Shown here piece by piece: positions 4,700 to 22,697 of a stretch of DNA of 64,000 bases. Position numbers and translations under genes: made by a program. How positions within the stretch are numbered: the first letter of the stretch is position 1; the number at the start of each line of letters is the position of its first letter. Origin of the DNA: an uncultured Chloroflexia bacterium (GTDB taxonomy: Bacteria; Chloroflexota; Limnocylindria; Limnocylindrales; CSP1-4); NCBI GenBank assembly GCA_963749705.1, contig CAVVNQ010000004.1, forward strand, positions 1 through 64,000, given 5' to 3'. Below the pieces are notes generated by a model. The model was not told the origin of the DNA and did no database searches. It worked only from the letters and a program-made list of their open reading frames with translations.

Positions 4700-4775
4700 T
4701 GGCGAGTGGCCAAATTGGTAAGGCACCTGACTCTGGATCAGGAAATTGAAGGTTCGAGTCCTTCCTCGCCAGCCA
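4700..4775 (+). tRNA. tRNA-Gln (CTG)
   Basis: TGGCGAG/CTCGCCA acceptor stem, CCTGA-CT-CTG-GA-TCAGG anticodon arm, GGTTCGAGTCC T-arm, encoded CCA. Confidence 0.97.
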
Positions 4776-21162: not shown

Positions 21163-21795
21163 GTGCTGTTCCGTGCCGATCCCTGGCTCCACGTCATCGC
21201 CGGGTGCATGTCCTCCGGCAAGACCGACGAGCTGCTGCGACTCCTCCGCCGCGCGGAGATCGCCAAGCGCCGGATCCTCCTCGTCCGCCCGGACGTCGAC
21301 GACCGGACGCCCGCCGAGTACGCGGAGAGCCGGAGCAAGGCGCGCTACCCGTCCGTGCTCGTTTCGCGCTCGGATCCGGTCGAGATCCTGTCGCTGTCCC
21401 GCGAGCGCGACGCGGACCTCGTCGGCATCGAGGAGGCGCAGTTCTTCGACGACAGCCTCGTCCGCGTCGTGGAGACGCTGCGACAGAGCGGCCGTCACGT
21501 CATCGCCAGCGGCCTCAACACGGACTTCGCGGGCCGCCCGTTCGGATCGATGCCGGACCTGCTCGCGGTCGCCGACGAGATCACGATGCTCACCGCGATC
21601 TGCGTCGTGTGCGGCGACACCGCGACCCGGACCCAGCGGCTGGTCGGCGGCCGGCCGGCCGCTGTGGACGACCCGCTCATCGTCATCGGCGGCTTCGAGT
21701 CGCCCGCGGTCGAAACGTACGAGGCGCGCTGCCTCCGCCACCACGAGGTCGCCCCGGCCGGCACGGCGCGCGGCGTCGTCGCCGACGGCGGCTGA
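21163..21795 (+). CDS. tdk: thymidine kinase (copy 2)
   Basis: GCMSSGKTDEL, IEEAQFF, CVVCG...YEARCLRH. Confidence 0.9.
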   Translation: MLFRADPWLHVIAGCMSSGKTDELLRLLRRAEIAKRRILLVRPDVDDRTPAEYAESRSKARYPSVLVSRSDPVEILSLSRERDADLVGIEEAQFFDDSLVRVVETLRQSGRHVIASGLNTDFAGRPFGSMPDLLAVADEITMLTAICVVCGDTATRTQRLVGGRPAAVDDPLIVIGGFESPAVETYEARCLRHHEVAPAGTARGVVADGG

Positions 21796-21898
21796 CCCAA
21801 CCGCTCCCAGCCGATCGCGACCCGGTCGCGCCGCCGGCGCCGGGGTTGCACGCGCGAGGGCCGCCCGGCCTGCCTGGTGGGGTCCGGCTCGGCCCTGC

Positions 21899-21986
21899 CG
21901 CTCCACATGTTGTCCACGGGTGGATGGAAGTGTGGACAACTTCCGGGCCGCCCGACCCAACTTCGTGGACAAGTGCGTTGTCCCCC
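21899..21986. promoter_or_regulatory. cluster of DnaA-box-like 9-mers
   Basis: TTGTCCACG 21910-18 (+), TTGTCCACA 21931-39 (-), TTGTCCACG 21964-72 (-), TTGTCCCCC 21978-86 (+). Confidence 0.7.
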
Positions 21987-22056
21987 TCCCCGCCGGCGGA
22001 TATCGTTCGGTTTGCCCGAAGGGGCCGGTGGTACAGACGCCGGACCGGTGAGTGAT

Positions 22057-22229
22057 CATCGGACCGGGTCCCCGAACCGCCGCCACGACGACCGCAAGGC
22101 CGACGAGGTGGCTGGATACCGGGGCCGCTGCGACAAGGCCGAGCTTGCTTGGCAGTGGCGTGGGCGTGTCGGTACGGTACGGTTCCTTCGGGCGCTTTCG
22201 TGTGCGCTCGCCCGTTCGGATCCCCGATG
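22057..22229 (+). ncRNA. candidate structured RNA / cis-regulatory leader
   Basis: Nested stems with GCAA and UUCG tetraloops; G-U pairs favour + strand; see findings. Confidence 0.45.
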
Positions 22230-22697
22230 CCCAAGCTGTCAGCCGGCCTGTTGCTCTTCCGTCGCACCGAGGACGGGATCGAGGTCCTGGTCGCCCACCC
22301 CGGTGGACCGATGTGGGCGCGTCGCGACATGGGCGCCTGGTCGCTGCCCAAGGGAGCCCCGAACGACGACGAGGTCGACCTCCTGGATGCGGCACGGCGG
22401 GAGTTCCGCGAGGAGACCGGTCACCAGCCCCCGGGCGGACCCTATCTCGAGCTGGGAGAGGTCCGGATGCGGTCGGGCAAGGTCGTGCGTGCCTGGGGCG
22501 TCGAGGGCGACCTCGACCCGGCGACGGTCGAGAGCATGCGAGTCGAGCTCGAGTGGCCGCCGCGATCCGGGCGCACGGTGACGGTGCCCGAGCTCGACCG
22601 AGTCGCGTGGCTCCGCCCGGTGGAGGCTCGCCGCCGCCTCAACCCCGCGCAGGCCGGGTTCGTCGATCGCCTGCTCAACATCCTCGCCCGGCGCTGA
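22227..22697 (+). CDS. NUDIX hydrolase
   Basis: SAGLLLFRR, HPGGP, WSLPKG...AARREFREETG. Confidence 0.9.
   Translation: MPKLSAGLLLFRRTEDGIEVLVAHPGGPMWARRDMGAWSLPKGAPNDDEVDLLDAARREFREETGHQPPGGPYLELGEVRMRSGKVVRAWGVEGDLDPATVESMRVELEWPPRSGRTVTVPELDRVAWLRPVEARRRLNPAQAGFVDRLLNILARR

Follow-up and report, generated by a model that had tools for sequence, protein, structure and literature searches.

The DNA considered here (the window, a stretch of 64,000 nucleotides (nt) from contig CAVVNQ010000004.1 of an uncultured Chloroflexia bacterium, with a G+C content of 71%) contains a gap of 430 nt between the thymidine kinase gene, tdk, and a NUDIX hydrolase gene. Positions 22014 to about 22196 of the + strand in this gap are, with a probability that we put at roughly 0.78, a free-standing gene for a structured small RNA (sRNA) of about 180 nt, which is one of four paralogues in its genome and belongs to a multi-gene family of the Limnocylindria (Chloroflexota). 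Environmental RNA libraries contain the RNA as a separate species of very high abundance, and a sigma-70-type promoter (TTGTCC-17-TATCGT) sits 7-8 nt ahead of it, preceded by a cluster of predicted DnaA boxes. An initial annotation, whose interval (22057-22229) falls inside the same gap, had described a novel riboswitch-like leader able to sequester the start codon of the NUDIX gene or, as a second option, a 6S/Ms1-like sRNA; the structured RNA itself stands, but not the unit that was drawn around it.

Conservation and limits of the RNA gene

The gap between tdk and the NUDIX gene is kept in 35 of the 36 other genomes of the genus, with 71-94% identity, and both flanking genes align at 28 of 29 other loci of the genus (the remaining locus is cut by a contig end). 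The alignment of these sequences has a sharply bounded conserved block from about 22000 to 22205. Identity to the window is highest, among the segments compared, over the RNA itself (91.2% for 22014-22196), followed by the end of tdk (83.6%), the NUDIX gene (78.7%), the spacer 22197-22226 (65.2%) and the far part of the gap (51.3%). Variable columns of the RNA are spread evenly over the three codon positions (31/30/31, vs 48/38/93 in the NUDIX gene) and gaps within its alignment are 1-2 nt long; judged by this absence of periodicity and by the gap lengths, the stretch is non-coding. The 5' end would lie 7-8 nt past the -10 hexamer, and the 3' end is placed at 22190-22196 by the ends of contigs from RNA libraries.

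Two peculiarities were seen within the genus. At one locus (L028), DNA of about 1 kb that is rich in G+C and internally repetitive is inserted after tdk and upstream of the boxes, the RNA gene itself being unchanged. In another genome (L030 / L165) the 3' strand of the end helix and the U tail are tandemly duplicated, so that the CCTTCGGGCGCTTTCGTGT stretch occurs twice.

Secondary structure and covariation

The consensus structure was obtained with RNAalifold from an alignment of 30 sequences of the genus (A1), which was not fitted to any model. It consists of a 14-bp helix joining the two ends of the RNA (22014-22027/22180-22193, called here the clamp or P1), with a 4-bp extension, and then three hairpins (H1, H2 and H3; Table 1). 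In A1, 99.1% of the cells pair, vs 30-45% with slid partners, double changes are found at 6 pairs (27 cells), and the covariation score was reached by none of 500 shuffles. A second alignment (A2), of 31 matches from other genera, has double changes at 42 of 58 pairs (201 cells) and 90.7% of its cells paired vs 34-52% with slid partners; this alignment was fitted to the model and leans towards it. H1 shows double changes in 3 of its 14 pairs (e.g., G-C to C-G in 9 of the 30 sequences). H2 has a C-G pair replaced by U-A in 4/30 and, across genera, double changes in 7 of 8 pairs, while the changes in H3 are one-sided within the genus and this hairpin is the most variable part between genera. P1 gives no covariation within the genus because the clamp never varies there.

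As to stability, the + strand of 22013-22206 folds at -106.2 kcal/mol (z -3.41, with 1 of 200 shuffles as good) and the - strand at -90.8 kcal/mol (z -2.87). P1 contains two invariant G.U pairs, which are mismatches if read on the opposite strand. The RNA is therefore assigned to the + strand, because these pairs fit that strand only and its fold is the more stable, in agreement with the preference for the + strand that had been drawn from G-U pairs in the initial annotation.

The interval 22057-22229 gave a different result, its fold being no better than chance. It reaches -82.4 kcal/mol on the + strand, where 200 dinucleotide shuffles average -79.5 +/- 4.6 and 49 of them do as well (z -0.63), and z is -1.54 on the - strand. 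As drawn, the interval fails the comparison with shuffles that the initial annotation had itself named as a test, and the true structured block is 22014-22196. The sequence words quoted in support of that interval do occur where they had been placed, and one of its elements, the CC-GCAA-GG apex, is kept in all 30 genus sequences, within a covarying helix. All pairs of the GCCAC/GTGGC stem around this apex are kept in 18/30, and there is better support for a register two positions away. Other proposed helices are poorly kept: GCCGCTGC/GCAGTGGC, where double changes are absent, is whole in 13/30 and TACCGG/TCGGTA in 4/30, and CC-TTCG-GG (22185-22192) is no separate hairpin, since it forms part of the end helix. 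Two mutually exclusive partners had also been suggested for the segment 22072-22079. The pairing of 22072-22077 with 22214-22219 is whole in 2/30 and is discarded; GAACCG (22074-22079) can pair with CGGTTC (22180-22185) in 29/30, although this pairing shows no covariation and 22180-22185 lies in the invariant end helix. This segment might compete with the 5' strand of the clamp.

Apex words of two hairpins are conserved in the family. The H1 apex word GAG[CT][GA]ATC is found in 95 of 133 RNAs of the family, vs 1.0 expected from shuffles, and CGCAAGG, at the apex of H2, in 88 of 133.

Presence in environmental RNA libraries

Part of the region 21900-22260 is present in 20 public runs from 13 studies, seven of them RNA libraries. 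Contigs of four metatranscriptome runs were placed on 21700-22500 at a likeness of at least 85%, and their cover is limited to 22021-22196, where summed word depth reaches 6.4e5 (X5), 1.6e4 (X19) and 1.0e3 (X9/X10). Contig depth is zero from 21700 to 21996, and zero again past 22212 with the exception of one X5 contig of depth 10.5, which spans 22178-22419 into the NUDIX gene. In the X19 contigs adapter letters abut 22021 and 22023 on one side and follow 22190 and 22193 on the other, and in X9/X10 a run of 12 A comes after 22196. Two X9/X10 contigs carry, directly before 22021, 23 letters that resemble 22098-22120, a downstream-to-upstream junction that may be due to template switching or chimeric assembly.

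Promoter and DnaA boxes

The -35-like and -10-like hexamers are separated by a spacer of 17 nt, and the latter ends 7 nt ahead of 22014. Upstream of them stand DnaA-box-like 9-mers, whose presence the initial annotation had pointed out correctly. Among 126 distinct genes of the family a strict box starts at -56 to -46 in 121, loose boxes concentrate at about -84 (97 cases), and a total of 220 strict boxes lie within 130 nt upstream of the RNA, vs 4 in a downstream control of the same length. The spacings are roughly 11, 22 and 33 bp, so the boxes would face one side of the DNA helix. The word TT[GA]TCCAC has 64 copies in the 3.6-Mb genome and its densest cluster is this promoter, with three copies within 120 bp. 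The complete box/-35/-10 architecture was found four times in the genome, each time directly ahead of GCCCGAAGGGGCC, that is, of a clamp RNA. Within the class, genomes with at least one match to this promoter module amount to 61/69 in the family of the window (f1), 4/7 in f2, 19/21 in f3, 42/52 in f4 and 1/1 in f5; the reversed control gave matches in nine genomes.

The reading of these upstream 9-mers as DnaA boxes is supported by similar boxes at the dnaA-dnaN gap and at a ribonucleotide reductase gene of the same genome. The former (G000:C3 ~187780-187890, L243), which is likely to be oriC, contains TTATCCACG, TTGTCCACG and TTGTCCGCA, and holds fewer strict boxes than the RNA promoter. At the latter (G000:C8 ~207180-207320; L240 ~1180-1320), seven looser boxes of GTGGA type, all in the same orientation, occupy about 150 bp and are followed by a TTGACC-17-TATCGT promoter, a leader of about 350 nt and nrdJ, which codes for a class II (B12-type) ribonucleotide reductase (L240:1477-4500; Pfam PF02867, PF08471). 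A candidate fifth clamp RNA near C8:207452 was rejected, since the region corresponds to this nrdJ leader and box array.

DnaA acts as a transcription factor outside oriC, for example at nrdAB in Escherichia coli and at sda in Bacillus subtilis. As in such promoters, the boxes described here are clustered, phased and located just upstream of the -35 element, and similar GTGGA-type boxes precede the ribonucleotide reductase gene of this organism. Unlike nrdAB and sda, however, the product here is not a protein but a family of abundant non-coding RNAs. No description of an sRNA family with DnaA-box promoters was found in the open literature, at the level of titles and abstracts.

The box module does not appear to be a general promoter of stable RNAs: in the same genome a loose box occurs within 160 nt of 1 of 53 tRNAs and none upstream of 16S. 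In the sister family f3, a tRNA-Lys(CUU) gene (L263:1421-1493) directly follows a DnaA-box/-35/-10 module. A simple promoter and terminator scan of 21700-22400 found nothing, because its rules miss this promoter (8/12 matches) and a terminator stem of such long range.

Distribution of the family and genomic context

A covariance model built from A1 found matches in 59 of the 101 genomes of the taxonomic family, which represent 32 of its 49 genera; in the two families of the order it matched 58/108 vs 0/42 genomes. The exact clamp pattern (the two 12-nt end words, 50-230 nt apart) is present in 88/137 f1 genomes, with one to four copies in each and none in the reversed control, and in 0/263 genomes from the four remaining families of this class. 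Between genera the ends of the RNA are nearly invariant and the interiors differ, also in size (classes of ~74, 80-86, 112-120, 145 and 178-190 nt). A search of named genomes with the 17 nt of the 3' end gave at least 119 stretches, and 42 of 80 loci had the 5' word at the right distance; among the matches listed, 39 of these 42 are Chloroflexota-type (Candidatus Limnocylindrales, uncultured Chloroflexia, Chloroflexota) and the remaining 3'-end matches look like chance or plain terminators.

The four clamp RNAs of the genome (Table 1) have interiors unrelated to one another, and the neighbours of the other three include a GTPase, MoaA, a PNP_UDP_1 phosphorylase, a MerR-type regulator and a protein with a tRNA-editing domain. 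Outside f1, the promoter module was searched for in five genomes of f2, f3 and f4 and gave ten matches, five of which precede RNAs whose clamps are related to that of f1 yet altered: in one, both strands have changed, so that G-C stands in place of A-U, and others are longer or shorter by a single pair. The rest are one further variant clamp, one tRNA-Lys, two stretches that look protein-coding and one that looks like RNA.

Pfam scans of the flanks of 28 homologous loci showed that the neighbours vary and that in many cases the next gene downstream has the opposite orientation. At least ten neighbour types were found, among them tdk/NUDIX, HlyD/NUDIX, Rieske-DUF2231 with MFS or GT87 in opposite orientation, EamA/CorA, photolyase, MoaA, RDD/PNP_UDP_1 and, at six loci, a DnaB_C-type ATPase next to inorganic pyrophosphatase; the RNA thus has no constant position upstream of one class of genes across these loci. 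Because the neighbours change from locus to locus, the RNA is considered a gene of its own.

Some of these counts include unpublished genomes. G141 (locus L057) is one of the 31 rows of A2 and one of the 24 rows of a further alignment (A3), and it is also counted in the covariance-model tally of genomes, in the set of 126 promoters and in the six loci with ATPase and pyrophosphatase, while G425 and G312 contribute to the f4 figure for the promoter module; no claim depends solely on any of the three.

Two further observations concern the interiors of these RNAs. Some clamp RNAs of f1, f3 and f4 have in common a word with the pattern GAGAU-NN-CAUCAA(G/A)G (strictly in 13/133 f1 RNAs, loosely in 22, and in 0 of the shuffles), including the G000:C8 and C10 copies and those at L259, L261, L262, L264 and L266. 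Mimicry of the anti-Shine-Dalgarno sequence was considered and rejected: 9 nt of one paralogue coincide with the 3' end of 16S, but this match is missing from the motif in its common form.

Table 1. Features of the RNA locus, its neighbourhood and the paralogous clamp RNAs of the same genome (positions without a contig label refer to the window; negative distances are counted from the RNA start)
Feature	Position	Strand	Basis or remarks
RNA gene, ~180 nt	22014..22196	+	conservation, fold z, covariation, contigs of RNA libraries
Clamp P1, 5' strand (GCCCGAAGGGGCCG)	22014..22027	+	pairs with 22180-22193 in 30/30
Hairpin H1, apex tetraloop GUGA 22052-22055	22036..22070	+	14 pairs, 99% paired
Hairpin H2, apex tetraloop GCAA 22094-22097	22072..22122	+	A1 consensus, covariation
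Hairpin H3, apex tetraloop CUUG 22144-22147	22124..22165	+	A1 consensus
Clamp P1, 3' strand (CGGTTCCTTCGGGC)	22180..22193	+	pairs with 5' strand in 30/30; contig ends with adapter at 22190 and 22193
U-rich tail (GCTTTCGTGT)	22194..22203	+	kept within the genus and across genera
-10-like hexamer TATCGT (TAnnnT)	22001..22006	+	TAnnnT at -17..-7 in 126/126 family genes
-35-like hexamer TTGTCC	21978..21983	+	TTG at -42..-33 in 116/126 family genes
Predicted DnaA box, promoter-proximal (CGTGGACAA on +), ~-49	21964..21972	-	invariant in genus; most constant upstream element
Predicted DnaA box, opposite orientation (TGTGGACAA on +), ~-82	21931..21939	-	sequence; family pile-up
Predicted DnaA box, distal (TTGTCCACG), ~-104	21910..21918	+	position recurs in other genera
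Weaker box look-alike (GCTCCACAT), ~-114	21900-21908		sequence
Thymidine kinase gene (tdk), neighbour	21163..21795	+	Pfam PF00265, E 6.6e-37
Variable spacer ahead of NUDIX ATG, outside the RNA	22197..22226	+	65% identity, indels
NUDIX hydrolase gene, neighbour	22227..22697	+	Pfam PF00293, E 5.2e-11; ATG at 22227
Clamp RNA 1 of the genome	C4:22014-22193	+	180 nt
Clamp RNA 2 of the genome	C2:290084-290169		86 nt; same box/-35/-10 module
Clamp RNA 3 of the genome	C8 near 360512	-	~150 nt, variant 3' strand; same box/-35/-10 module
Clamp RNA 4 of the genome	C10:33744-33672		73 nt; same box/-35/-10 module

Comparison with known RNA families

As the initial annotation had supposed, the RNA is uncatalogued. 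At gathering thresholds an Rfam search of the whole window gives only a tRNA at 4700-4772, and in 21700-22400 at E<=10 there are three sub-threshold chance matches (SNORA57, MIR1432 and ffh); for eight homologous loci the sole match was one to radC, below threshold and elsewhere. The SNORA57 match (a eukaryotic small nucleolar RNA; 21864-21941, 26.6 bits vs a gathering threshold of 40) lies over the DnaA boxes and is taken as chance. In the open literature, mostly at the level of titles and abstracts, no description of this RNA was found.

6S RNA binds the sigma-70 holoenzyme of RNA polymerase and templates the synthesis of product RNA (pRNA). It is the only class of housekeeping RNA without a match in this genome, where the signal recognition particle (SRP) RNA, the RNase P RNA and the transfer-messenger RNA (tmRNA) are present elsewhere: RF00013 gives no match at E<=10 either in 21700-22400 or in the whole genome, a search in which 7 of 14 control genomes were matched, and it matches 35 of 151 genomes sampled from the phylum, with 0/16 in the class (the genome of the window included). 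The RNA described here resembles 6S RNA in being stand-alone, in its length (6S-like, ~160-200 nt), in its paired ends (the 14-bp helix) and in its high abundance, of which contigs are a poor measure. Unlike 6S RNA, a rod-like molecule with a large central bubble that separates its closing and terminal stems, it forms a junction of a closing stem with three hairpins, it has short paralogues of 73-150 nt, and its promoter carries DnaA boxes. It is not filed as 6S RNA because its fold has no central bubble.

Ms1, according to PMC9130861, adjoins a HAD-IB hydrolase/oxidoreductase gene in Actinobacteria and is about 300 nt long, and the CoRP RNA of Corynebacterium measures about 516 nt (PMC9130861, PMC11077062). 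It has been proposed in PMC11077062 that each species has one abundant RNA associated with RNA polymerase, maybe unlike 6S or Ms1. Ms1 and CoRP are lineage-restricted, abundant and structured RNAs beyond the reach of homology searches, which the RNA of the window is too, and they serve as the precedent for a polymerase-associated RNA of non-6S appearance; unlike them, it belongs to the phylum Chloroflexota, is about 180 nt long and has tdk and NUDIX as neighbours, the HAD-IB hydrolase/oxidoreductase neighbourhood of Ms1 being absent from this locus. Of the second option offered by the initial annotation, the stand-alone sRNA is nearer the truth, but membership of the 6S or Ms1 families is not supported.

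Y RNAs and YrlA share with the clamp RNAs a conserved helix formed by the RNA ends, a variable interior and several paralogues per genome. Unlike them, the clamp RNAs show no recognisable tRNA-like module; neither Y_RNA nor YrlA has an Rfam match in 21700-22400 even at E<=10, and no TROVE/Ro60-Rsr gene (PF05731) was matched in the genome, which is 88% complete.

Proposed mechanism and alternative explanations

In the mechanism that we propose, DnaA bound to the upstream boxes would set the output of the RNA, be it by activation or by repression. P1 and the U-rich tail, which resemble an intrinsic terminator, would end transcription and also shield both ends from exonucleases, so that the RNA could accumulate. 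The RNA would then act in trans, any effect on the NUDIX gene being probably limited to weak read-through of the terminator. Its role is tentatively seen, at somewhat less than even odds, as that of a protein-binding decoy or scaffold that makes contact through the clamp and the conserved hairpin apices, and it would in this way report the status of the replication initiator to another process. A bolder proposal, which we hold to be doubtful, is that DnaA commands a whole set of very abundant end-clamped RNAs in Limnocylindria, an RNA arm of the DnaA regulon, either replacing 6S RNA as a replication-tied brake on RNA polymerase or feeding back on initiation.

Several points weigh against a free-standing, DnaA-controlled sRNA gene. 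In the genus the RNA always precedes the NUDIX gene and no separate promoter is seen in the 30-nt spacer, so that some coupling in cis by read-through is possible. The boxes could serve a factor other than DnaA, whose binding is predicted from sequence, and the function of the RNA is one that we infer. P1 is invariant in the genus and the covariation of this helix comes only from five loci of sister families. As to the RNA libraries, contigs show neither the strand nor the exact ends nor the true level of expression, they start at 22021-22024, so that there is no direct cover for the initial 7-10 nt of the RNA as proposed, the parts of low depth could stem from carried-over DNA, and X9 and X10, whose figures are identical, may be one data set. 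Finally, searches for TROVE, CsrA and Hfq as candidate partners were negative, although their absence is not proven because the genome is 88% complete.

The leader reading, by which the NUDIX mRNA would mask or expose its start codon through alternative folds, would account for the constant position of the element, about 30 nt ahead of the gene throughout the genus, and it can also draw on the X5 contig that bridges both, on a NUDIX gene that follows the RNA in one other genus (L039) and on the GAACCG/CGGTTC alternative. We consider it highly improbable: it fails because the helix over the start codon (CATCGG, 22057-22062, with CCGATG, 22224-22229) is not conserved, being whole in 13/30. Moreover, its 5' strand, CATCGG, is the 3' strand of the covarying H1, a hairpin with 9 compensated cells. 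The spacer varies and contains indels, RNA-library contigs end at about 22196 with a depth 2 to 4 orders of magnitude above that of the bridging contig, and Rfam gives no riboswitch match. Most homologues stand ahead of unrelated or opposite-strand genes, and the four paralogues share promoter and clamp while their neighbours differ. Even less credible is a miniature mobile element bounded by inverted repeats at its termini, or else a DNA site that titrates DnaA and yields the transcript as a by-product. The ends are nearly complementary as DNA, the copies lie at different loci and sometimes in tandem, and the boxes are densely clustered, but the G.U pairs, which are mismatches in DNA, are kept at the ends in all sequences, the interior helices covary, the copies within a genome differ inside, synteny is stable within the genus and the RNA is abundant. 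Neither perfect terminal inverted repeats nor near-identical copies, as expected of miniature inverted-repeat transposable elements, were found at these loci (target-site duplications were not searched for).

The other alternatives concern what a free-standing RNA would do. A base-pairing sRNA acting in trans, with apices such as GAG[CT][GA]AUC as its seeds and mRNAs for replication or nucleotide metabolism as its targets, would fit the excess of apex words over shuffles, the putative regulon shared with nrdJ through the promoter and the nucleotide-related neighbours (tdk, NUDIX, pyrophosphatase, nucleoside phosphorylase). It seems unlikely, given that the conserved apices are tetraloops of GNRA and CUUG type, usually structural, and that neither a long conserved single-stranded seed nor, in the 88%-complete genome, Hfq was found. 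A functional stand-in for 6S (or for Ms1/CoRP), which would bind RNA polymerase and tune transcription globally, is a special case of the protein-binding role; the missing RF00013 matches, the size, paired ends and abundance of the RNA, and the proposal of species-specific polymerase-associated RNAs (PMC11077062) speak for it. We rate it as distinctly unlikely, because the covariation-supported junction of several hairpins lacks a central bubble, paralogues of 73-150 nt that share the clamp are too short to mimic an open promoter, and the Ms1 neighbourhood is absent. An RNA like Y RNA, part of a ribonucleoprotein in which a dedicated protein binds the end stem, is very improbable: the invariant stem, the unrelated interiors and the 1-4 paralogues of 73-190 nt per genome agree with it, but neither the protein nor a family match was found, as detailed above, and no conserved protein neighbour was seen. 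The reading as a protein-binding decoy or scaffold is kept as the preferred one, at the tentative level given above.

Significance

As judged by record titles, most of what is known of Limnocylindria comes from metagenome-assembled genomes, obtained from soil, sediment and freshwater, and gene regulation in this class has hardly been studied. One of their most abundant transcripts is an uncatalogued RNA whose gene is wired to predicted DnaA boxes. The combination of promoter module, clamp and U tail provides annotators with a defined model, which explains many intergenic gaps that had looked empty and prevents their being misread as riboswitches or repeats. If control by DnaA is true, the family would provide a clear example of stable non-coding RNAs that are driven, as a set, by a replication initiator, and would open a route to the question of the missing 6S RNA in this class.

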